This document shows positions 14,636-64,000 of a stretch of 64,000 nucleotides of DNA, piece by piece. Source of the DNA: a virus; IMG/VR virus record IMGVR_UViG_3300028024_000008, positions 89 through 64,088 of that record, one strand, 5' to 3'. How positions within the stretch are numbered: the first letter of the stretch is position 1; each line of letters starts with the position of its first letter. The notes beneath the pieces are model-generated. The model was not told the origin of the DNA and ran no database searches. It saw only the letters and a list, made by a program, of their open reading frames with translations. A program made the translations under genes and the position numbers.

Positions 14636-15022
14636 ATGGGGATCGATCTTCACGCGCATATCAAGCGGCTGGCGGGCGAACTCGAAGAGGCGAAGCTCAG
14701 GATCCGTGAACTCGAGGACGCCCTCGGCGCCGGTTTTCAGGCACCGCTAGCCCTCGGCCTGACGAAACATGAGGGGCAGCTGCTCGGCCTTCTGGTCAAA
14801 CGCCAGGCCGTCATGCGTGAGATGGCGATGGCGGTCATGTATGGAGACGCCGCGCGGCAGCCGCAGGATGACCGCATTCTCGATGTCTATATCGCCAGGA
14901 TCCGCAAGAAGCTGGATCAGTTCGGTATCGAGATAAAAACCATGTGGGGCTCCGGCTGGGTGATCGAGCCTGAGCACAAGGCCAAGATCCATGCGCTCAC
15001 GGCCGATGAGGTGCCGGTATGA
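14636..15022 (+). CDS. Receiver-less OmpR/CtrA-type winged-helix regulator
   Basis: LTKHEGQLLGLL...ILDVYIARIRKKL...IKTMWGSGW. Confidence 0.85.
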   Translation: MGIDLHAHIKRLAGELEEAKLRIRELEDALGAGFQAPLALGLTKHEGQLLGLLVKRQAVMREMAMAVMYGDAARQPQDDRILDVYIARIRKKLDQFGIEIKTMWGSGWVIEPEHKAKIHALTADEVPV

Positions 15023-15591
15023 GAACCGACTGGCCCTTCGGCGAGCTGCAGATGTTTGGCTTCGATCTCGTGATGATCGATATCCCCTGGTCGTTCGAAA
15101 CCTGGAGCGATGCCGGCAAGCGGGAAAAATCGCCCGAAAGCCACTACGAGACGATGACTCTCGACGAGATCCGATCTTTGCCGGTCATGGATCTCTTTGG
15201 CCGGGACGGTCTTCTTTGGGCTTGGGCGACACACCCGATGATCGATCAGCAGATCGACATGGTGAAGCGTTGGGGCTTCAAGTTCGTAACCACCGGCGTT
15301 TGGGTGAAGCGGACACGGACTGGGAAGCTAGCCTTTGGCACCGGTTACCGCCTTCGCTGCGCCTCTGAACCCTTCATCATCGCCACCACCGGCAGTCCTG
15401 TTACCAGCAGGTCGATCCGCACCGTCATCGAAGGCCCGATCCGTGACCATAGCCGGAAGCCGGATGAGGCTTATAGAGAGGCTGAAAAGATGATGCCGAA
15501 CGCGCGCCGCGCGGACGTCTTTGCCCGCCAACGGCGTTCAGGGTGGGCAGCTTTTGGCAACGAAATCGACAAGTTTAAGGCCGTGGCGTAA
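15019..15591 (+). CDS. MT-A70 family adenine methyltransferase
   Basis: DLVMIDIPW, HYETMTLDEIRSLPV, LWAWAT, HSRKP and DVFARQRRSGWAAFGNE motifs. Confidence 0.9.
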   Translation: MRTDWPFGELQMFGFDLVMIDIPWSFETWSDAGKREKSPESHYETMTLDEIRSLPVMDLFGRDGLLWAWATHPMIDQQIDMVKRWGFKFVTTGVWVKRTRTGKLAFGTGYRLRCASEPFIIATTGSPVTSRSIRTVIEGPIRDHSRKPDEAYREAEKMMPNARRADVFARQRRSGWAAFGNEIDKFKAVA

Positions 15592-30207: not shown

Positions 30208-30796
30208 CGTGATCACGGTCCTGGCGGGCGGCTGGTCGGCTGGTCTGCTGGACCTCGCACGGCTGCCGGGCTTCGTGATCGGGGTCAATGACAGCGCCAT
30301 CCATGCGCGCTGCGACCATGTCGTCTCGATGGACCGGCTCTGGACCGAGCATCGGGCGGCGCATCTCGCCTTCTGCAATGTGCCGGCGCATATCCGCGGC
30401 GCGGCACTAAAGAACGTGAAGCCGTGGCCGGCGCTGCAGCGGTTCGATTGCGATCATAGGTCAGCCGTGTTCTCGGACGACCCCGGCATCCTGAACGGGA
30501 CGAATTCCGGGCTCTGTGCCTTCAATCTCGCCTACCAGATGCGGCCGAAGCAGATCTTCCTGGTCGGCTTCGATATGCAGCGCGGGCCGAATGGGGAAGG
30601 GCACTGGTTCCAGGATTACAGCTGGGCGCCAGGCGGGGCGACCAAACAGGGCAAATACAATGCCTGGGCAATGGAATTCCATTGCGCCGGCGGCAAATGC
30701 TCTGCGGCCGGAATCGAGGTTTTGAATATTGGTGAGCGGTCACTGATCGACGCTTTCCCGAAGATCAACAGCAAGGATTTCGGTCGTTACCAATGA
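30200..30796 (+). CDS. Maf/MptE (DUF115)-like transferase, copy 2
   Basis: VLAGGWS, VIGVNDS, NSGLCAFNLA and IFLVGFDM. Confidence 0.65.
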   Translation: MPDVITVLAGGWSAGLLDLARLPGFVIGVNDSAIHARCDHVVSMDRLWTEHRAAHLAFCNVPAHIRGAALKNVKPWPALQRFDCDHRSAVFSDDPGILNGTNSGLCAFNLAYQMRPKQIFLVGFDMQRGPNGEGHWFQDYSWAPGGATKQGKYNAWAMEFHCAGGKCSAAGIEVLNIGERSLIDAFPKINSKDFGRYQ

Positions 30797-31488
30797 GAGA
30801 TGTGACGTTCTGCCTCGCCTATTACCTGAATCGAGGCATGTTGCGGGAGCAATACCGCCAGCTCCGCGCGCTGCCCGCCGACCTGAAAGAACATCTTCGT
30901 CTCATCGTCGTCGATGACGGCTCGCCGGATCCGGCCTGGGCCGATGATCTCGGCTTCCCGATGCGTCTCTACCGGATGCAGAAGGACATCGCCTGGAACC
31001 AGGACGCCTGCCGCAACCTGGCGGTCAAGGAGGCCGAAACCGACTGGGTGCTGATGACGGATATGGATCATGTCGTTCCGGAGCAGACCTGGCGCCGCGT
31101 CGTCACCGGCAGCCTCGATCCGAACACCGCCTATCGCTTCGCCCGCGTCTCGATGCCGAAGCGCGACGCTTATAAGCCGCATCCCAACAGCTGGCTGATG
31201 ACGACAGCGGTCTTCGAGAAGGCCGGCGGCTATGACGAACGCTTCGCCGGCTATTACGGCACCGATGGTGACTTCGTCGGCCGGCTGAGCGCCCAGGCGC
31301 CGATCGAGCAGCTGAAGGAGCACATCATCCGCTACCCGCGCGAGGTCATTCCGGATGCCTCGACGACGACCCTGGCGCGGAAGTCGGAAGAGAACGGCGA
31401 GGCGATCAAGCGGATCAAGGCCGAGCGCAAGCTGGAAACCGATGGCCGCCCGAAGCGCTATCAGACGCCCTGGGAGCGCCTTGCCTGA
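30793..31488 (+). CDS. GT-A fold glycosyltransferase (GT2/GT7-like)
   Basis: IVVDDGS, ACRNLA, MTDMDH and GGYDERFAGYYGTDGDF. Confidence 0.85.
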   Translation: MRDVTFCLAYYLNRGMLREQYRQLRALPADLKEHLRLIVVDDGSPDPAWADDLGFPMRLYRMQKDIAWNQDACRNLAVKEAETDWVLMTDMDHVVPEQTWRRVVTGSLDPNTAYRFARVSMPKRDAYKPHPNSWLMTTAVFEKAGGYDERFAGYYGTDGDFVGRLSAQAPIEQLKEHIIRYPREVIPDASTTTLARKSEENGEAIKRIKAERKLETDGRPKRYQTPWERLA

Positions 31489-48675: not shown

Positions 48676-49446
48676 ATGGACAGACTTAAAAGCAATATCG
48701 GCCGGCGTTACGACTGGATCCCGGACCTGCCGGATCACCGCGATGATGTCTATCAGGTGAAGCGCCGTCTAGCGCTGCCGACGAAGGTCGATCTCTCGGC
48801 GAAATGCTCGCCGGTCGAGGATCAAGGCGATCTCGGCAGCTGCACCGCCAATGCGCTCGCCGGCGCCCTCGAATTTCTCGAGGATGTCGACGGCACGCCG
48901 TTCAAGGATATTAGCCGGCTCTTCATCTATTACGGCGAGCGGGCGATCGAGCATACCATCAACCAGGATAGCGGCGCGCAGATCCGCGACGGCGTCAAGT
49001 TCTTGCACCAGATCGGCGTCTGCTCTGAAGATCTCTGGCCCTATGTCATCGCCAAGTTCAAGCAGCGGCCGCCGGCAGCCGCCTATGCCGATGCCAGCGG
49101 CCGCAAGATCACCAGCTATAGCCGCGTCATCGGCATCAATGCGCTGCGGGCCTGCCTGGCGGCCGGCTTCCCGGTCGTGTTCGGCTTCACGGTCTATGAC
49201 GGCTTCGAGAGCGATGCCGTCGCCAGGACCGGCAAGCTGAACATGCCGAAACCGACGGAACGGGCGCTGGGCGGCCATGCCGTGCTGGCGGTCGGCTATG
49301 ACGACGGGACCAAGCGGGTGAAGGTCAGGAACAGCTGGGGCGCTGGCTGGGGCCTGAAGGGCTATTTCACGATGCCCTACGACTATATCGGCAATCCGCA
49401 GCTCGCCGACGATTTCTGGACCATCCGCGCCGGGAGCCAGCTGTGA
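48676..49446 (+). CDS. Papain-family (C1A, xylellain-like) cysteine peptidase
   Basis: DQGDLGSCTANA, GGHAVLAVGY and VRNSWGAGWG catalytic motifs. Confidence 0.92.
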   Translation: MDRLKSNIGRRYDWIPDLPDHRDDVYQVKRRLALPTKVDLSAKCSPVEDQGDLGSCTANALAGALEFLEDVDGTPFKDISRLFIYYGERAIEHTINQDSGAQIRDGVKFLHQIGVCSEDLWPYVIAKFKQRPPAAAYADASGRKITSYSRVIGINALRACLAAGFPVVFGFTVYDGFESDAVARTGKLNMPKPTERALGGHAVLAVGYDDGTKRVKVRNSWGAGWGLKGYFTMPYDYIGNPQLADDFWTIRAGSQL

Positions 49447-50539: not shown

Positions 50540-51619
50540 CTGCAGCGCAATTTCGGCCTCGACCTGATGCGAGCCGCCGCCATCCTCATGGTGGTGACGG
50601 TCCATGCGCCGAAGACATTCCCTGGCGAGCAGATTCCCTCCATGTTGAGCGTCGATCTGTTCTTCGCGCTGAGCGGCTTCCTGATTGCCCAGATGATGGT
50701 CGAGCGGTTCGATGGCATCTCGACTTGGCCGGCATTGCGGGCTTTCATGCTGAACCGCTGGCTGCGGATCTTCCCGCTCTATTACCTGACCCTCGCCGCT
50801 TTCCTCGTCTATGCCGCCCTGCGATATCCGCCGAGCTGGACCGGCGGATCGTTCGTGGCACCCTGGCAGTTCGTTTTCTTTCTATCGGACCTGACCGCCG
50901 GCCGGCCCAATGACCATGGCTATTTCTCCTTTTTCCTTGTCTCGTGGTCGCTGTCGATCGAGGAGCTGTTCTATTTCGGCTGCCCGCTGGTGGCGCTGCT
51001 GACCGGCCGGTGGCGCCGATCGCCGATATTCTGGATCTGCCTTGGCGCCGCAGTCATCGTCGCGACCATTTTGGCGCGGCTCTGGGTATATCTGCAGGTC
51101 GACGACGGATCCCTGACCGAGGATAGCGCCTATCGCCGCGCGACGTTCCTCCGGGCGGATGTCTTTGTCTATGGGGCGGCGATCTATTGGCTCTGCCAGC
51201 GGGGATTCTTTACCCGCCGGAATGCGCTGCTGGTCGCGGCCATCGGCCTTGTGACCTTGCTGTGGTGCGCCGTTCATTATATCGCCGCGCCGGACGGCTT
51301 TTTCAGCAAGATCTGGCTGCTGTCCCTGGTGCCGATGGCCTGCGCCATGCTGATCCCGGCGGCGATGATGCTGCCGGCGCCGAATGTGATCGGCGGCCTG
51401 ATCCGGCTGCTCAGCACGCGGACATATGCGCTCTATCTCACCCACATGCTGGTGCCGGCCGTCTGGTTCATCTTCGTGGCGATCACGCCGACAAACTATC
51501 TCTGGTCGCTGGCGATCTCATTCCTTCTCGCCAATCTCCTGCATATCGCCTTGGAGCGGCCGTTCATGCAGTTGCGCCCAATGGATGCATCACATAAGGT
51601 TCCCGCCCTGGCAGAATGA
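50540..51619 (+). CDS. Acyltransferase-3 (OafA-like) membrane O-acyltransferase; lysogenic conversion moron
   Basis: GLDLMRAAAILMVVTVH, VDLFFALSGFLI, RWLRIFPLYY, SWSLSIEELFY and TYALYLTH; start inferred at CTG 50540. Confidence 0.9.
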   Translation: MQRNFGLDLMRAAAILMVVTVHAPKTFPGEQIPSMLSVDLFFALSGFLIAQMMVERFDGISTWPALRAFMLNRWLRIFPLYYLTLAAFLVYAALRYPPSWTGGSFVAPWQFVFFLSDLTAGRPNDHGYFSFFLVSWSLSIEELFYFGCPLVALLTGRWRRSPIFWICLGAAVIVATILARLWVYLQVDDGSLTEDSAYRRATFLRADVFVYGAAIYWLCQRGFFTRRNALLVAAIGLVTLLWCAVHYIAAPDGFFSKIWLLSLVPMACAMLIPAAMMLPAPNVIGGLIRLLSTRTYALYLTHMLVPAVWFIFVAITPTNYLWSLAISFLLANLLHIALERPFMQLRPMDASHKVPALAE

Positions 51620-52122: not shown

Positions 52123-52320
52123 AAGGTGCGACAATGGGCTGAGGAAAAGGTGCGGAATGCTGGGACATTCGCCGACTGTCGCACTCTCGCTAAGCGGCTG
52201 ATTTTCTTCAATTGTGGCATGCCGTCCCTGGGCACCATCGCATTTCCAAGCATTTGAAAACGCTTCACTTTGTGCCGGCTTTTGTCGCACCTTTCGTGAA
52301 CTGCGCTTCAGGTGCGACAA
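52123..52320. other. attP: core CCGTCCCTGGGCACCA (52222-52237, a tRNA 3' end) flanked by integrase arm-type repeats AGGTGCGACAA
   Basis: Repeats at 52123-52134, 52147-52157, 52177-52185 (inverted), 52282-52293 (inverted) and 52310-52320; adjacent to the integrase 3' end. Confidence 0.8.
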
Positions 52321-53416
52321 TCTCGTTCTCTTTTGGTGCCTCGCGGCTGAGATATTTCATGCCGCTGGCGGCCAGCTTATTGCGGTTCGCCTTGCGGGTA
52401 TAGACCGCTGCTTGCTTCGGGCTTTCCCAGCCATAGATCGCCATCAGCTGGTATTCGGTAGCGCCGTTGTTCGCCGCGATCGTGGCGCCCGCCTTGCGCA
52501 ATCCATGCGCCGAGCAGCCGATCAGTCCCGCAAGGCGGCATTGCCTGCCGAACCAGTTGCCGAAGCCACCATGTGAGTAGGCCTTGCCGTGGTCGGTGAC
52601 GAGATAGGTCAGATGATTATTCGGCGTCGCGTCGAGCACTTGCTGCAGCTCAGGCAGCACCGGAATGAAGCGCTCCTTCAGCACCCGCTTGCGACCCTTC
52701 CATTCTCTGAAATGGAGGACGGGACCGCAATATTCTTCCATCTCGATATGTTTTGCCATTTGCCGCCCGAGCTTGATGACGTCTGACCGCCGCACGCCGG
52801 TAAAGAGCAATAGAGCCATCGCCAGGCGCGGCTTGGTTCCGATCGGCCAGCGCTTCTCGAACTGTGCGATCTCCTCAAGAGTCCAGGTATGGAACCCCTC
52901 GGGATTGTTGCTTTCCAGATAAGGCACGTCGGCCGCCGGGTTGGCCTCGGCGTATTCCATGGCGATTGCCCATTTGAAGACCTGCCGCAGCGCCTTGATG
53001 AAGCTGTTCGCCGCCTCTGGCCGGCTCGACATGGCGTCACGGTCCTGGCGTAGGTTCCGGGCCCGGAGTGGCTTGAAGGGCAGGTGGCCGTCTCGCTGGC
53101 TGAATTTCTCCAGGATCAGCTTCCGGGCATGCTGTGTCGCCGGCTCGAGGGTCTTGAATTCGGCGCTCTTGTAATACTCGGTCAGCAGCCACGCCAGGGT
53201 GCCACTGGCGGGCGCCAGGGCTTTCTTGGGCAATCCAAGGCCATTGGCGGCCCGGAACTCCAGCGCCTGCAGGCCGTCCTTGTAGCTCTGAAGGAAGGCG
53301 GTTGTGCCTGGCGCGCCCTTGACCCGGATCCGCTTGCCATGGCGCCTGACATACCATTTCTCGTTCCCGTGCCGATCGGTCTCATGGGAGAGATAGGGAA
53401 GGTCGATCTGGGTCAT
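52265..53416 (-). CDS. int: Tyrosine integrase
   Basis: FTGVRRSD, SAHGLRKAGAT and YGWES...AVY catalytic residues. Confidence 0.95.
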   Translation of the reverse strand: MTQIDLPYLSHETDRHGNEKWYVRRHGKRIRVKGAPGTTAFLQSYKDGLQALEFRAANGLGLPKKALAPASGTLAWLLTEYYKSAEFKTLEPATQHARKLILEKFSQRDGHLPFKPLRARNLRQDRDAMSSRPEAANSFIKALRQVFKWAIAMEYAEANPAADVPYLESNNPEGFHTWTLEEIAQFEKRWPIGTKPRLAMALLLFTGVRRSDVIKLGRQMAKHIEMEEYCGPVLHFREWKGRKRVLKERFIPVLPELQQVLDATPNNHLTYLVTDHGKAYSHGGFGNWFGRQCRLAGLIGCSAHGLRKAGATIAANNGATEYQLMAIYGWESPKQAAVYTRKANRNKLAASGMKYLSREAPKENEIVAPEAQFTKGATKAGTK

Positions 53417-57488: not shown

Positions 57489-57784
57489 GATTGCACACCT
57501 GTTAAAAGATAGTCGGTCGTGACGTTCAAATACTTGGCGATTTTGACCAAGCTGTCGAAGCCGATGCTGTTAGATTTGTTGTTGACCAGGCGCCATGCAA
57601 CACCGTGCGAGATATCGCATTCGACCTCTAGCGCCTTGATAGTAAGGCCGCGCTCAGAGAGCAATCTTGCGACACGTCCGCCTGGGGTATCAGGAAATGA
57701 CGCCGATATCCCTTCGCCGCAGTGCGGGCATCTCATCGTCTCAACTCCCTGCGCAGCTGCGCTGCTTGGCGTCGTTTCAGGCAT
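57485..57784 (-). CDS. XRE-family HTH regulator with N-terminal CPHCG
   Basis: LLSERGLTIKALEVEC...LVKIAKYLNVTTDYLL. Confidence 0.8.
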   Translation of the reverse strand: MPETTPSSAAAQGVETMRCPHCGEGISASFPDTPGGRVARLLSERGLTIKALEVECDISHGVAWRLVNNKSNSIGFDSLVKIAKYLNVTTDYLLTGVQS

Positions 57785-57884
57785 TCCGCCTCAGTGTCGT
57801 ATCCGCACGCCTCACGCCAGATCAGCCATGCCAGATAGCCGCTGTTGAGCAGTAGATACGGCAGGCCGATGGCGAGAGAGGGGA

Positions 57885-58163
57885 TCATCCGATGCCTCCT
57901 GCTCGCTCAATCGCCTGTATGCGGATACGCTCCCAGGCATGGTCCGCAATCATCTGGCACCGCTCCAAAGTTTCACCTTGAACGCCACGCTTGATGAGGC
58001 GATTGGCGCGGCTGTACCTTTTCCGATGATGAGCATCGCCGAGCCGCCAATGCTTCCAGCAGATGATGCGGGTCCCTTCCTCGTACTTCGCCTTTGGAGC
58101 GGTACGGCGGCAGAACGGCACCTCGCAGGCGATGCGGTCGGGCTTGGTCATGGAAACAGCCAA
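57885..58163 (-). CDS. Hypothetical Cys/His protein
   Basis: CEVPFC and ICWKHW. Confidence 0.6.
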   Translation of the reverse strand: MAVSMTKPDRIACEVPFCRRTAPKAKYEEGTRIICWKHWRLGDAHHRKRYSRANRLIKRGVQGETLERCQMIADHAWERIRIQAIERAGGIG

Positions 58164-59851
58164 TCTGCTGCTTTGACCGTCCCGCGCCCGCTGGGCTCGA
58201 TCAACCCATAGGCGGCAACGGCCGACATATAGACCCCGGCCGTGCTGGCAGTCGGCGACAGCCCAACACTTTCAGCAACGGCATCCCGGCGGATATCCTT
58301 CGGCCAGGCACGATAGATGACATCGAAGACACGCTGCTCCTGAGCGCCTAAAAGACCGCGCGCCATTTGATAGAGATCTTCGCGCGTCGTCGCCGTCGGC
58401 ATGTTTGCCGCCTTCAGCCCTGCCGGCGTCAGCGCGATCTTGCCGGGCGATGTTTCGAGCAGTCCTGCTTTGACCAGCTGCGAGACGTAGACGCCGAAGG
58501 TGGAAGCCTTCGGACTATAGCCGGCAACGACACAGGCCCTATCACGGTCGGCTGGATCCTGGCCGATCTTGCGCCACCAGGCGACTGCGTCGAGGACGCG
58601 CTGCTGTGCCGGCGTGATGCCTTCGCTGGGAGGATTGGAGCGGACGACGGGACTCGAACCCGCGACACTCGGCTTGGAAGGCCGATGCTCTACCGACTGA
58701 GCTGCGTCCGCTTTGTGAGTTGGCACCTTCATCGGCGATGGTGCGCCGCGACGCTCTCCTGGCACCACATGGTTGCCATCATAGTAATCGAGATGCCCAC
58801 GGACCCGCTTCAGGAGTTCGTCCCACCCGCCAACATATCCCTCGTTATAAGCGCCAAGGCGCATGGCATCGATCTCGGCCTGAGATATGGATGGCACCGA
58901 TACCTGTGCCGGCGCAGCCTTCAACTGCTTCTCCAGCTCGGCAACGCGTCGCCGCAATGCGACCGGATCATCTGCCTCAGCCGCCTTCACGGCATCACCG
59001 ATCAATGCCCGCAGCTTCTCAGGATCGACCTGAGCGGTCTTGACCTCATGCCGATGATCGTCATCGGTCGGGGTGGCGCTGTTGTCATAGGTCGTGATGC
59101 GCGGGAACTTGACGAGATCGGCGATATTGGCCTCCCCGGATATCACCCAGCCTTCACCGGTCTTGAGGCCGGCCAGCGAGCGGGAGACCTTCTCGGCAAC
59201 GTCCTTGGCGACGTTTCCCCGCAGCCATTCCTTGACCGGCGTCTGATCGGCCGGCAGCGTCAGCCGGTGCGCGATAAGCGTCTCGCAGCTGCCGAGCACG
59301 GCATTGTGCAGCGATTGGGTCCGCTGCGTCACCACCACCAGGCGAATGCCCTTCGACCGGCCGGCAGTTGCCAGCTTCTTCGCGAAGTGGATGGTCAGGT
59401 TCTCGCCGCCGAAGCCCGCCCGTTCTTTCGGGGCGAATTCGTGCGCCTCCTCGATGACCAGGTAGAGGATACCGCGCATCTTCCGCAACAGGGCCGGTGC
59501 GAATTCCGTGAAGAAGGTCTGCAGGCCGCCCGGCTTGAAATCGGCCATGTCGATGATACTCAGCGGCAGGTCACCACCGGCCACCAGCTCGCCGATCGGC
59601 TTGCCCGCCGTCTCCTGGATCTGCACATGGCCGTGCGGGCCGCCCAGGATCTGGAATGGCAGGCCTGGGCGCTTGCCGTCGGCGCTTGACGTCAGGCCCC
59701 ACCAGTCGGACTTGATCGGGTCCAGAATGCACACCCGGGCGCCCTGGGCCACGACATGCTCGACCAGCAGCTTGGCGGTCGAGGTCTTGCCCGAGCCAGT
59801 CTTCCCGACCACAGCAGTATGCTGGCCGATGATCTCCTTGAAGATCTTCAT
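58148..59851 (-). CDS. HerA/FtsK-superfamily (DUF87-like) ATPase with C-terminal winged-helix-like domains
   Basis: Walker A VGKTGSGKT, Walker B LVIEEAHEFAP, GRSKGIRLVVVTQR. Confidence 0.88.
   Translation of the reverse strand: MKIFKEIIGQHTAVVGKTGSGKTSTAKLLVEHVVAQGARVCILDPIKSDWWGLTSSADGKRPGLPFQILGGPHGHVQIQETAGKPIGELVAGGDLPLSIIDMADFKPGGLQTFFTEFAPALLRKMRGILYLVIEEAHEFAPKERAGFGGENLTIHFAKKLATAGRSKGIRLVVVTQRTQSLHNAVLGSCETLIAHRLTLPADQTPVKEWLRGNVAKDVAEKVSRSLAGLKTGEGWVISGEANIADLVKFPRITTYDNSATPTDDDHRHEVKTAQVDPEKLRALIGDAVKAAEADDPVALRRRVAELEKQLKAAPAQVSVPSISQAEIDAMRLGAYNEGYVGGWDELLKRVRGHLDYYDGNHVVPGERRGAPSPMKVPTHKADAAQSVEHRPSKPSVAGSSPVVRSNPPSEGITPAQQRVLDAVAWWRKIGQDPADRDRACVVAGYSPKASTFGVYVSQLVKAGLLETSPGKIALTPAGLKAANMPTATTREDLYQMARGLLGAQEQRVFDVIYRAWPKDIRRDAVAESVGLSPTASTAGVYMSAVAAYGLIEPSGRGTVKAADWLFP
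58636..58711 (-). tRNA. tRNA-Gly(UCC), 76 nt with encoded CCA, nested inside the ATPase CDS
   Basis: GCGGACG CA GCTC AGTCGGTA GAGC A TCGGC CTTCCAA GCCGA GTGTC GCGGG TTCGAGT CCCGT CGTCCGC T CCA: all four stems pair (one G-U), discriminator U73; the one noted deviation is C at position 8. Confidence 0.88.
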
Positions 59852-60150
59852 CCGTTCCCCTTTGTCGGCATGTACCGTGCCTCGAATTCCTTGATGAAGC
59901 CGTCCAGCTCGGCCTGGATCAGCGCCAGGCGGTTGAGATCGCCATCGGTGGCGTCGTCGCCATCATCGAGCGTGCGCAACAGCGTCGCGAAGACATGCTG
60001 GGCGCCAGCAAAGAAGGCGGTCCGCATCTCTGCGAGCTGGATGGCGGGCGCGTCGGTCGGGATCGTCATCACGCGCAGGCTGTGCCAGCCGGCCTCAATC
60101 AGCTTGCCGCTATTGGCAAGCTCGCGTTCCAGTTCTTCAATCTGGCTCAT
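59848..60150 (-). CDS. Hypothetical conserved phage protein
   Basis: QLAEMRTAFFAGAQHVF. Confidence 0.65.
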   Translation of the reverse strand: MSQIEELERELANSGKLIEAGWHSLRVMTIPTDAPAIQLAEMRTAFFAGAQHVFATLLRTLDDGDDATDGDLNRLALIQAELDGFIKEFEARYMPTKGNG

Positions 60151-60545
60151 GCAGCCTCCTGTAAGCCGGCTCGTTCCCGGCGATCTTCCAGCCGCGCGAG
60201 TGTCTCCAATCGCACAGCAATCGACTGATGCAGGCGGCCAAGACGACGGCCGATCTCCATATTGTTGACGCCCTGCTTGGCGAGAGCGAGAAGCTCGGCA
60301 TCTTCCTCCGGACTGAACCGGCGGATCGTCCGGTCCCGGCATTTTATGACGGGCTTGCCCCGATAGGCCGGGGCGACAATCGCGGGCGGTCTCCCCTCGA
60401 CCTCGATCACATAATGCCGGCAGGCATATTCGACTGTCGAATGAGAGCGGCCGATCTTCCGACCGATCCGCTCATAGGACCAGCCTCGGCCGCGCAGCTC
60501 TTCGATGGCGGCGATCTCTGCTTCGCTCAGTCGTTTGCGTGTCAT
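60147..60545 (-). CDS. Tandem HTH (Myb/GcrA-like) protein
   Basis: GWSYERIGRKIGRSHSTV and FSPEEDAELL...EIGRRLGR. Confidence 0.7.
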   Translation of the reverse strand: MTRKRLSEAEIAAIEELRGRGWSYERIGRKIGRSHSTVEYACRHYVIEVEGRPPAIVAPAYRGKPVIKCRDRTIRRFSPEEDAELLALAKQGVNNMEIGRRLGRLHQSIAVRLETLARLEDRRERAGLQEAA

Positions 60546-60859
60546 GCCCGCTTCTCCCGCTGAGCCATTCTGACCGCCTGGCGGCCGATCTCGGTAATGA
60601 ACCACTCGGCCGAATAGTCGCTGTCATTGACCCAGGTAAAGAGTCCGATGCCGGCCACACTGCGCCGAGCTTCACGCCGCACCAGGCCGCGCCAGTAAAG
60701 AGCACGGATGACCCGCATCGGGTACAGATGGCCGATAGGATTTCGCTTCGGCCGCCGGCCGGTGCGCGGGTCTGCCGAGCTGAGGCAGAGCAGCATCGCG
60801 TCGCTAAGCTGCAGGTCGACCTTGCCGCCGGCGGGGAAGGGGATGATTTGGGCTGTCAT
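60542..60859 (-). CDS. Hypothetical protein
   Basis: ATGA-coupled. Confidence 0.55.
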   Translation of the reverse strand: MTAQIIPFPAGGKVDLQLSDAMLLCLSSADPRTGRRPKRNPIGHLYPMRVIRALYWRGLVRREARRSVAGIGLFTWVNDSDYSAEWFITEIGRQAVRMAQREKRA

Positions 60860-61290
60860 TGCTTTGCCATCCTGTCATAGAGAACGACATTCGCCGTCGC
60901 AGCGAGATTCATGCACGCTGCAGTGGGGATGGAGATCAAGTCCCGGCATCGTTCGGTTAAATGTCGCGGCAAGGAGCCGTCCTCCGGCCCGAAAATATAG
61001 AAGGCCCGTTCCGGGTGACGATATCGAAAGAGCGAGCGTGCTGAAGGATCGATCTCGACGGCAACCGGAACGCAATCGTGTGGCAATGCGCCAAGCAGAT
61101 CGGCGACATGAAGTGTCGGTATATGCCGCCGGGCATCGGTTGTGTCCGAGGCCTGCCTGCGGTATCGGTGTCCCTGGATGACGATCAGGGATGCGCTATA
61201 GCAAAAGGCCGCGCGCATCACGCCACCGACATTGTGGTCAGTCTTCGGATTGAAAAGGCCGATTGCGGCGAAACCACGGCCACGCATCAT
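60856..61290 (-). CDS. SPOUT (TrmH/TrmL-like) RNA 2'-O-methyltransferase
   Basis: PKTDHNVGGVMRAA, FGPEDGSL and ISIP...MNLAATANVVLYDR. Confidence 0.85.
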   Translation of the reverse strand: MMRGRGFAAIGLFNPKTDHNVGGVMRAAFCYSASLIVIQGHRYRRQASDTTDARRHIPTLHVADLLGALPHDCVPVAVEIDPSARSLFRYRHPERAFYIFGPEDGSLPRHLTERCRDLISIPTAACMNLAATANVVLYDRMAKQ

Positions 61291-61622
61291 GCGATCTCCA
61301 TCGAAAGCTGGCCGCGCTTCCTGTCGCGCGTGCGCCTGGCATTGGTTTGATGATGATGGTGGTCATAGGCGAGATGGCACTTCTGGCACATCGCCTTTAG
61401 GTTATCGTCACCGCAGTTCTCCGGCGTATGATCGAGATGTGCTACTGTCAGCACGACGGTCTTGCCGGTGATCGGATGCGGTTTGCCGTGCTCGGCCGTG
61501 CAGCGCGTGTCTCCGACCGTTTGCTCACAGCGGCCGCCGGCTCGATCGAAGCGGATGCGATGGCTGATCTGCTTCCAGTCCTTCGGATAGCGCTTGCGAT
61601 TCTCGAGGCGGATCGGCATCAC
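61287..61622 (-). CDS. HNH endonuclease-like protein
   Basis: RCE...LTVAHLDHTPENC...NLKAMCQKCHLAYD. Confidence 0.8.
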   Translation of the reverse strand: MMPIRLENRKRYPKDWKQISHRIRFDRAGGRCEQTVGDTRCTAEHGKPHPITGKTVVLTVAHLDHTPENCGDDNLKAMCQKCHLAYDHHHHQTNARRTRDRKRGQLSMEIA

Positions 61623-62356
61623 GCCGGCTCCTTCATCTGATCGATGTTGGTCTTGTGGACAGTGAAGCTCAGGGCAACGACATCGGGGTTAGCGTCCCAG
61701 GATTCGGGGCCGTGTAGATGGCGCCACAAGCGGGCGAAGACCAAGCCGGCTGAGACGCCATCGGCGCAGCGCAATTCAACCTCCGGTAAACCTGGGACAT
61801 AGGTGCATAACAGGTTACCGGATGGCTCGTTCTTTACGACGCCTTCAGCGATGGCATCCGCCTCGCTGATATCCTGCAGCCGCTCTATCTTGGTGGCGGT
61901 CACGACCAGGGTCAGGCGGCTGGCCCAGCGTGGCATGTGGATAGGCGGCACGAGTTTGCCGCCGGTCAGATCCGGATCGTCTGATCGATAGGCGAGCAGG
62001 TTCCACCAATTGCCGAACGCTTCCGACTCTCTATCGTGATTCGACGTGACAACGCGCAGATCGTGATCAGCCTCGTAATGGATGCAGTGGTCAAAGTCCT
62101 CATCTTCGACCGCCTTCACTGTCTCTCGCACCCAAAGCCGATCGCCGGGCTGCACCTTCTGCCAGGGCGATAGTTTAGGCGCGTCACAAGTCGGGCAGAC
62201 ATCATAGCCGTGCCGGCATTCGATGGCCGGTTCGCACTTAGCTGCCGCGATAGCCACTCGTGAAGATTTCCACGCCAGCCGCCTGGTCATGGTCTTGCGC
62301 CCGTCCAGCAGAGCGCGCACCATGGGGCCGCTGAAGATGACGGGGATATCGGTCAT
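61619..62356 (-). CDS. ASCH/PUA-like domain protein
   Basis: IFSGPMVRALLDGRKTMTRR, GDRLWVRET and IHMPRWASRLTL. Confidence 0.7.
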   Translation of the reverse strand: MTDIPVIFSGPMVRALLDGRKTMTRRLAWKSSRVAIAAAKCEPAIECRHGYDVCPTCDAPKLSPWQKVQPGDRLWVRETVKAVEDEDFDHCIHYEADHDLRVVTSNHDRESEAFGNWWNLLAYRSDDPDLTGGKLVPPIHMPRWASRLTLVVTATKIERLQDISEADAIAEGVVKNEPSGNLLCTYVPGLPEVELRCADGVSAGLVFARLWRHLHGPESWDANPDVVALSFTVHKTNIDQMKEPA

Positions 62357-62835
62357 TCGATGTACCCGCGCTTGGCGATGTCCTTCAGCTGCCGCGCAAG
62401 CTGTGTCACTTCGGCTTGGACATAAGCATCATCGCGATAGACATCATCGCGAAAGGCTGCCCAGCCGCATCTGGCGTCGCTGGCTGGCGTTTGATCGCCG
62501 GCGTGCGCACAATCGAAGCCGAGCCACCAAATGCGATGAGGGCGGCCAGCCTCGGGGACATGGCATATGCCAAATTCACCAGCATCCTCTCGGCAGAACG
62601 CCGCGAAAGTCAGTCCGCCATGCGCATCAACCGGCACATCGTCATAGTCCTTCCCGAAGGAGGGATGACCTTCCGAGACACCGACATAGCCGCACCAGAC
62701 GCCAGAATGGTTGCGGACCATGAGACAGTCCAGGTTTGTGGCCTCATCCACCCATTGGCGCTTGTCGGGTTCATCGAGCCATGGACCATGCCCCCAGGCC
62801 TTCTTGTCGAGCTCAGAATTGTAAAGGGCCTTCAT
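62353..62835 (-). CDS. Conserved hypothetical phage protein
   Basis: WCGYVGV, HGGLTF and WWLGFDCAH. Confidence 0.7.
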   Translation of the reverse strand: MKALYNSELDKKAWGHGPWLDEPDKRQWVDEATNLDCLMVRNHSGVWCGYVGVSEGHPSFGKDYDDVPVDAHGGLTFAAFCREDAGEFGICHVPEAGRPHRIWWLGFDCAHAGDQTPASDARCGWAAFRDDVYRDDAYVQAEVTQLARQLKDIAKRGYIE

Positions 62836-63296: not shown

Positions 63297-64000
63297 TCAG
63301 GTCTCGATCTGCGGATAATACTGCTTGCCGGTCAGCCCGAATGTGCTGGCGATGGCGTTACGTGCCGTAAGCTTCTGCGGATCGCCGAATTGCTGATCTG
63401 CGAGCAGGGGCCGGCATTCCGGATGGACGCGGAGCGTGTAACGCTTCCAGCTGCCATCTGGCTCAGGCGTCGAATTGATGACATGGACCATGACGAGCGG
63501 CTCATCATCGCGGACATTCTTGCGATAGAGCGTGCCGACGCCTTCTTCGTGATCGAGGATCTCGGCACTGCCGGCGAGTAGGTATTTGTCGAAGCCGAAG
63601 CGCTCCATCATGACGCGCCGGACCTCGGCGTTCTGCTCGGCATCGATCAGGTCGACCGTGATGCGCTCCGGATGCAGGATGATCCAGTCCGGAACGCGGA
63701 CGCCGTGCCAGGAATAGACGCCCCAGCCATCACGATATTCGATCGCGGCGCGGTCTTCGCAATGGAGCCGGCCTTGATCATCGCGCGCCAGGTGGCGCGG
63801 CCGATCGGTTACGAGACAGACTTTCTCCATCGGCCAGAACCAGCCGGCCGACTGCGTCAGCTCGATCAGGCCGACAAGACGCTCGGTCTGCTGGACCAGG
63901 GCGCAATTCTGGCGGAAAAAGTCATAGAAACCGGTCCAGTTGCCATCGTGTTGGCCGTAACCGGCCGCCCGCACGCTGGCCCCCACGCTGTCCCACACGC
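63297..64000 (-). CDS. C-terminal part of the DUF6745-like protein (continuation of 433->1)
   Basis: SVWDSVGASVRAAGYGQHDGNW...GRLHCEDRAAIEYRDGWGVYSWHGV...NAEVRRVMMERFG. Confidence 0.85.
   Translation of the reverse strand, partial: VWDSVGASVRAAGYGQHDGNWTGFYDFFRQNCALVQQTERLVGLIELTQSAGWFWPMEKVCLVTDRPRHLARDDQGRLHCEDRAAIEYRDGWGVYSWHGVRVPDWIILHPERITVDLIDAEQNAEVRRVMMERFGFDKYLLAGSAEILDHEEGVGTLYRKNVRDDEPLVMVHVINSTPEPDGSWKRYTLRVHPECRPLLADQQFGDPQKLTARNAIASTFGLTGKQYYPQIET

Follow-up and report, generated by a model that had tools for sequence, protein, structure and literature searches.

The window analysed here, a 64,000-nucleotide (nt) stretch (positions 89 to 64,088) that is nearly all of the 64,349-bp virus record IMGVR_UViG_3300028024_000008, encodes a terminase, a tyrosine integrase and a single tRNA, and this tRNA lies inside a protein gene. 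Genes for an ASCH-like protein, a small HNH endonuclease, a SPOUT methyltransferase and a HerA-like ATPase stand on the minus strand between 58148 and 62356 (Table 1), with a tRNA-Gly(UCC) gene inside the ATPase's open reading frame (ORF), and all five elements are present where an initial annotation had placed them. The region is best explained as an ordinary early operon, in a temperate phage of ~64 kb, with a mosaic make-up in which genes are shuffled independently. The nested tRNA slot within it is real; its layout has a precedent in the bacterial selB gene, and a literature search returned no account of its mid-gene, swappable form in phages.

The nested tRNA-Gly(UCC) gene is complete. 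It scores 68.9 bits against RF00005 (cut-off 29; E 6e-13), forms 21 of 21 base pairs with the cloverleaf as its minimum-energy fold, keeps the conserved bases of the D and T loops and encodes its CCA end behind discriminator U73. The gene spans ATPase codons 381-406 on the sense strand and in frame, with the anticodon read as a single Ser codon, and sits mid-gene, ~160 codons upstream of the ATPase stop. tRNA identity rules define a glycine set and place U73 in Gly, A20 in Arg and G73 in Trp and Gln tRNAs; the glycine set is found here in full (G1-C72, C2-G71, G3-C70, U73, C35 and C36, plus CCA). A protein search with the tRNA-coded peptide alone returned no match. Among public sequencing runs, one of DNA from soil, which is probably the source sample, matched the record, and no RNA run was listed; a contig from this run covers the tRNA and both flanks with zero differences, which argues against an assembly chimera.

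The tRNA occupies a part of the ATPase that is predicted to be disordered. In the AF2 structure model, an ATPase domain (~1-250) and long helices (~277-359) precede a disordered linker (361-404; predicted local distance difference test, pLDDT, < 50), and the tRNA codons overlap this modelled disordered stretch, between the helical region and two C-terminal helix-helix-helix-strand-strand repeats that are probably winged helices. Median linker length is 130 aa in family members with a tRNA versus 136 aa in those without. The best Foldseek match is archaeal HerA (E 4e-10; template modelling, TM, score 0.34), the NCBIfam HerA equivalog models give 47-56 bits against cut-offs of 800-970, and the model begins at the P-loop strand. 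The protein shares its DUF87 P-loop core with the ATPases of the HerA-NurA, Sir2-HerA and DUF4297-HerA systems, its nearest solved fold, but differs from them in having neither an N-terminal barrel nor a conserved nuclease partner and in carrying a C-terminal linker with the two winged-helix-like repeats. The immediate neighbours of the ATPase gene vary from one locus to the next, with no nuclease or effector conserved beside it; the HNH gene of the window is near 3 of 91 loci. One distant relative was found in cultured phages, and a literature search, with subscription papers mostly outside its scope, returned no description of the ATPase family or of mid-gene phage tRNAs. Two side observations concern this gene in relatives. 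The ATPase of the sister phage L001 (1700-4402) contains an insertion of ~330 aa just past Walker B, with a Cys start and an Asn-then-Cys end, which can be read as an intein (no Pfam intein match at E 0.001). In three tRNA-bearing loci (L003, L004 and L151), a small acyl-carrier (PP-binding) gene adjoins or lies near the ATPase gene.

The same linker holds tRNAs of several types in related phages. Sixteen of 329 family members (~5%) have a tRNA there, each confirmed in DNA by ARAGORN; this is a lower bound, because for proteins without DNA the absence of a tRNA was judged by a peptide profile, which would fail to pick up Gln-type bodies. Carriers made up 4 of 89 loci collected irrespective of tRNA. 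Predictions made from homolog protein sequence, where the tRNA-derived peptide appears in frame, proved to be tRNA genes in DNA in 12 of 12 cases. All 16 copies lie on the sense strand and in the linker, share one codon phase of the T arm, and in 15 cases encode CCA; of the other frames, one is interrupted by stops in 12 of 13 copies, and the second is open in 11 of 13 but never used. Nine copies are Gly-UCC, three are Arg-CCG, and Arg-UCU, Lys-UUU, Trp-CCA and Gln-UUG occur once each.

Isotype swapping in the slot is evident within the family. Built without the linker, the tree needs ten changes to account for the carriers and a single carrier clade is rejected by the approximately unbiased (AU) test, ruling out a single origin with purely vertical descent. 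Two near-identical ATPases, P0030 and P0040, carry Gly and Arg-CCG tRNAs, respectively, and therefore the slot has been refilled or remodelled. For every nested tRNA except the Gln copy, the nearest nested copy is at least as similar as any of 67 free tRNAs, a pattern that would fit exchange among ATPase-carrying phages. Pattern scans of DNA for further nested copies brought up L001 and, apart from it, just two tRNA-Gly genes that are free-standing. Two copies are apparently chimeric: the Trp copy of L153 (1231-1306) has an acceptor stem nearly that of the window Gly tRNA, and the Gly copy of L152 (9258-9333) has the stem type of an Arg-CCG copy, which suggests remodelling in place. Additionally, the distant carriers L149 (1700-1720; Arg-CCG) and L151 (3008-3028; Lys-UUU) have the same AT-rich word of 11 nt, which stops 6 nt short of the tRNA, and resemble each other in the bases that follow CCA; this may reflect either a cassette common to both or a -10-like element.

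The nested gene shows constraint at the DNA level. Fourfold-degenerate sites inside the tRNA are identical to those of L001 at 14 of 14 positions compared with 63% over the remaining gene (p 0.001), and to those of L002 at 16 of 16 compared with 56% (p 1e-4). The linker directly upstream is unalignable between sister phages, and DNA similarity to L001 and L148 resumes exactly at tRNA base 1. Across the nested copies, 97% of stem cells are paired, with two-sided variation at 11 of 21 pairs. RNase P cleavage is influenced by the -1 base, G+1 and CCA (PMC13449736); an A or U stands at position -1 in 11 of 16 copies versus 30% at nearby third positions (p 0.001). These patterns bear on the notion of a neutral passenger, in which tRNA DNA would be captured occasionally by recombination, tolerated just in the permissive linker, and then left to decay. 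Such a passenger would be patchily distributed, as the ten tree changes and the rejected single clade have it, and the few imperfect copies agree with decay; however, silent sites are frozen in the tRNA beside a linker that sister phages no longer share in alignable form, the tRNA ends are exact, and a model search of the linkers of 93 loci found no half-decayed tRNA remnants. We consider a neutral passenger quite unlikely.

Identity elements mostly track the anticodon. U73 is present in 9 of 9 Gly copies, A20 in 4 of 4 Arg copies and no other, and G73 in the Trp and Gln copies. Cutting alone needs none of these elements, which counts against a cloverleaf that acts mainly in cis, as a processing or stability signal whose RNase P cut limits the ATPase and uncouples the downstream genes, or one that serves as a decoy RNA absorbing a host tRNA nuclease, with decoding irrelevant in either case. 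A signal of this kind would be at ease with six anticodons in one slot, with several copies that have broken pairs or odd discriminator bases and with the absence of codon enrichment, but 95% of the ATPase family copes without it, and we hold it to be unlikely.

Several observations weigh against a functional tRNA as well. Some of the covariation is inherited from differing tRNA types and predates nesting, so it is no proof of selection in place, and the high identity between distant carriers could stem from recent transfer as well as from selection. The L001 copy has two broken pairs, the L148 copy has two acceptor-stem mismatches, the T loop of the L152 copy is altered, and 3 of 4 Arg copies have U or C at position 73; given these defects and odd discriminators, some nested copies may be decaying. 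Codon compensation is unsupported, as GGA makes up ~9% of the phage Gly codons in a rough set of ORFs, some of them called in the wrong frame. The tRNA is also dispensable, because ~95% of the ATPase family has none.

On balance, we assign a probability of about 0.62 to the nested gene being a functional tRNA that is excised from the early mRNA; its expression, processing, charging and benefit are what we infer. The variable disordered linker would serve as a slot for one tRNA gene. An internal promoter is not evident in the window phage and none is conserved among the 16 carriers, so the tRNA must derive from the early mRNA, within which it would be transcribed. Ribosomes translating through the tRNA would produce ~25 linker residues. 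Where the tRNA folds, host RNase P would cut at its first base and 3' nucleases would trim to the encoded CCA, giving a usable tRNA-Gly(UCC); after the cut, the message for the ATPase core would lack a stop and would be separated from the winged-helix codons and the downstream genes. Each transcript would then yield the full ATPase or the tRNA, not both. The in-frame placement is probably kept because all operon junctions are 4-bp overlaps and an intergenic tRNA would break translational coupling; in an operon lacking intergenic space, the disordered linker would offer a place for 76 nt without disturbing that coupling.

Most likely, the phage would gain an additional or substitute tRNA while it infects, for instance where a defence cuts tRNAs. 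The phage tRNAs that act against such defences are, as far as is known, free-standing genes. Phage tRNAs can defeat tRNA-cutting defences (PMC11555353), and the counter-tRNAs to retron-Eco7/PrrC (PMC11555353) and PARIS (PMC11464382) make it plausible that one accessory tRNA whose anticodon can change is of benefit. The claim of the initial annotation that the phage supplies its own tRNA probably holds, although not within the module in which it was framed. More tentatively, and with the odds clearly against it, the slot may be a reserve that senses translation: on ribosome-covered mRNA the cloverleaf would stay unfolded and the ATPase would be made, whereas stalled translation under defence or starvation would allow folding and RNase P release while the ATPase falls. 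Anticodon swaps would retune such a reserve, and the minimal SPOUT enzyme may armour such tRNAs.

The nested tRNA does not appear to be the attachment site. It lies ~5 kb from the integrase gene, and in four further carriers of Gly-UCC, tRNA sequence of a different type adjoins the integrase: an intact Val tRNA in L002, 3' halves read as Val in L004 and L156, and a 5' half of Pro-UGG in L001. In L148, whose integrase is 96% identical to that of the window, the nested tRNA is Arg-UCU. A role as attachment site or in tRNA-dependent lysogeny is rejected for the four relatives and unlikely in the window phage. Under tRNA-dependent lysogeny (PMC10865867), the phage would integrate into the host tRNA-Gly(UCC) gene through a short core and the nested copy would substitute for it. 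The phage is temperate, and the 8-mer TTCCAAGC, a match to the anticodon loop, lies 14-21 nt beyond the integrase stop (52244-52251); however, this 8-mer has 4 occurrences in the window versus 2.2 expected, which is within chance, and neither the Val, Val, Val and Pro tRNAs beside the integrases of four Gly-UCC carriers nor the pairing of near-identical integrases with Gly in the window and Arg-UCU in L148 is compatible with it. We regard this route as highly improbable.

We found a single published case in bacteria of a whole tRNA within a protein gene, and it is bioinformatic. In Alphaproteobacteria, selC (tRNA-Sec) lies in the selB ORF, and an either/or outcome of RNase P cutting was proposed from bioinformatic evidence only (Mukai 2021; PMC8124441). 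The two cases share a whole tRNA on the sense strand and in frame within an ORF of a translationally coupled operon, with the same proposed either/or outcome, and in the phage ATPase the full in-frame sense-strand tRNA recurs across relatives. They differ in that selC forms the C-terminal tail, is itself the ligand of SelB and is always Sec, whereas the phage slot lies mid-gene between folded domains, away from the 3' end, and holds six isotypes with around ten gains or losses, the tRNA having no obvious connection to the protein. A second comparison is the tRNA-Lys of the temperate mycobacteriophage Fionnbharth, also a phage tRNA overlapping a coding sequence (gene 37), whose function was shown experimentally (PMC10865867). 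That tRNA is on the opposite strand, has its own promoter, overlaps the gene only at its 3' end and matches the attachment-site tRNA; the ATPase-slot tRNA is sense and internal, and the attachment-site tRNAs of the relatives differ from the nested one.

Annotation practice tends to drop tRNAs inside genes, and phage tRNA counts may therefore be underestimates. The ATPase family also provides natural pairs, near-identical proteins with different tRNAs or none, which let one ask whether the same stretch of mRNA can act as coding sequence at one time and as pre-tRNA at another, and for what reason a temperate phage would carry a lone tRNA.

The initial annotation had treated the ASCH-like, HNH, SPOUT and ATPase genes and the tRNA as one RNA-directed module linked by overlapping stops and starts. 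The 4-bp overlaps are real, but three extra genes stand between the SPOUT and ATPase genes and the chain continues in both directions: from a 160-aa gene (62353-62835) to a 51-aa gene (57733-57888), 9 of 9 minus-strand junctions are 4-bp stop/start overlaps. Because the coupled chain includes further genes and runs past both ends of 58148-62356, the overlaps do not single out five genes. Its family calls stand: a SpoU-class SPOUT enzyme with intact motifs, an ASCH fold with YqfB-type residues, an HNH protein of phrog_1571 and a HerA-like DUF87 ATPase.

Table 1. Features of the early operon and the downstream integrase gene, in window coordinates
Feature	Position	Strand	Size and assignment
ASCH-like protein	61619-62356	-	245 aa; phrog_874
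HNH endonuclease, small	61287-61622	-	111 aa; phrog_1571, PHROGs E 8e-34
SPOUT methyltransferase, minimal SpoU-class	60856-61290	-	144 aa; Pfam SpoU 60.6 bits
Protein without known family	60542-60859	-	105 aa; absent from the initial annotation
Helix-turn-helix protein	60147-60545	-	132 aa; Pfam HTH_38; absent from the initial annotation
Protein without known family	59848-60150	-	100 aa; 82% identity to the copy of sister phage L001; absent from the initial annotation
DUF87/HerA-like P-loop ATPase	58148-59851	-	567 aa; Pfam DUF87 above cut-off
tRNA-Gly(UCC) inside the ATPase ORF	58636-58711	-	76 nt; ARAGORN, Rfam RF00005 and fold
Tyrosine integrase, downstream, same strand as the operon	52265-53413	-	96% identical to the L148 integrase over 221 aa

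The genes of the proposed module are not inherited together in either direction, and the co-occurrence check that the initial annotation itself had named thus fails. Of 91 other full-length non-redundant ATPase loci, 1 had a SPOUT gene nearby, 3 this HNH gene and 11 an ASCH-like gene; the one with SPOUT, L015, has no tRNA. Conversely, 99 viral SPOUT loci had the ATPase in 0, this HNH gene in 0 and an ASCH-like gene in 7. SPOUT was not found in the available DNA of 15 other tRNA-bearing loci, several of which are short, nor in the L001 record and the L007 provirus, which are 67% and 94% complete, respectively. In the sister phage L001, similarity to the window reaches 62268 and resumes at 60257, and the ~2 kb between, comprising most of the ASCH, HNH and SPOUT genes, is replaced by ~140 bp, while the tRNA is retained. 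At this point L001 (1063-1401) has the ASCH N-terminus fused in frame to a helix-turn-helix C-terminus. On the co-occurrence counts and the gene content of L001 and L015, the five-gene module as proposed is rejected.

A functional form of the same proposal, in which SPOUT would shield the nested tRNA by methylating it and the ASCH-like, HNH and ATPase proteins would join it as one anti-defence unit, is very unlikely. The catalytic motifs of the SPOUT and ASCH-like proteins are intact, ASCH proteins strip N4-acetylcytidine (ac4C) from tRNA (10.64898/2026.02.27.708502), tRNA genes abut SPOUT in four loci, in two of them in frame in its C-terminal tail, and the nested tRNA bears the bases on which TrmH- and TrmJ-type enzymes act, G18 and C32. 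Against this stand the lack of co-inheritance from ATPase to SPOUT and from SPOUT to ATPase, the tRNA kept without SPOUT and HNH in L001, the SPOUT and ATPase pair without tRNA in L015, the missing TrmL determinants and the 89 of 99 SPOUT loci with no tRNA in the available flanks.

The SPOUT protein belongs to a large family (6532 homologs) that also occurs in many viral contigs and in which N20, R26, E103 and N128 are invariant in the alignment. It contains the SpoU motif set (TrmH Asn35, Arg41, Glu124, Ser150 and Asn152, matched by motif position) with Cys replacing Ser. The protein shares the SpoU fold and motifs with TrmL, TrmH and TrmJ and has the minimal size of TrmL, but lies far under the curated cut-offs, carries Cys at the position of TrmH Ser150 and has no extension domains. 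Against the TrmL model TIGR00185 it scores 27.3 bits with a cut-off of 190.6, and is thus not a TrmL orthologue. The TrmL substrate requires A35 and N6-isopentenyladenosine at position 37 (i6A37) (PMC4615657), and TrmL-type wobble methylation, as the initial annotation had considered, is unlikely because the nested anticodon is UCC.

Members of this viral family sometimes abut or contain tRNA genes. In 10 of 99 viral SPOUT loci, tRNA genes are nearby; among the 9 tRNA-bearing loci outside arrays, 4 have a tRNA no more than 120 nt away from the SPOUT gene or inside it (0.35 expected; p ~2e-4), and a further locus, L285, lies within a 21-tRNA array, bringing adjacency to 5 of 99. The control, ASCH-like loci, gave 0 of 20 and is too small to prove SPOUT specificity. 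The SPOUT frame runs through a whole tRNA-Gln(UUG) in L169 (8001-8519) and a whole tRNA-Arg(UCU) in L191 (1016-1549), in each case as a C-terminal tail, which shows in-frame tRNA nesting in a second gene family with a selB-type layout. In L204, a tRNA-Phe ends ~40 nt ahead of the SPOUT match, and the homologs P0285 and P0316 have tRNA-like N-terminal peptides, as seen in protein sequence only. In two cultured phages that encode relatives of SPOUT, no tRNA is annotated within 4 kb. For the SPOUT family, tRNA is a plausible substrate, which the adjacency favours, but this link is weak and does not connect the SPOUT of the window with the nested tRNA.

The ASCH-like protein has a GxKxxTxR motif (K21, T24 and R26) and E78, all invariant in 17 homologs. 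Structural search matched it to PH0355 (Z 10.8, root-mean-square deviation, rmsd, 2.5, 105 aligned residues) and to E. coli YqfB (Z 9.9, rmsd 2.3, 101 aligned). The catalytic residues of YqfB are a Lys-Thr-Glu triad with an Arg (PMC6972931), and the window protein appears to keep this set, with the equivalence of E78 drawn from position and not superposition.

The closest named relatives of the ATPase are from Bradyrhizobium (55-57%), which suggests an alphaproteobacterial host. For the host's own Gly-UCC gene, the comparison covered one host assembly with just 36 tRNA matches, of which 30 were examined. Both ends of the record fall within 12-bp tandem repeats that precede a DUF6745 gene (63297-64000) and code for a four-residue unit, suggesting a circular genome opened there. 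Elsewhere in the window, an MT-A70 methyltransferase is encoded at 15019-15591 and, close to the lysis region, a cysteine protease of the papain family at 48676-49446. A family 2 glycosyltransferase among the genes after the terminase region (30793-31488) and an Acyl_transf_3 acyltransferase adjoining the integrase end (50567-51619) may each modify the virion or the host surface.

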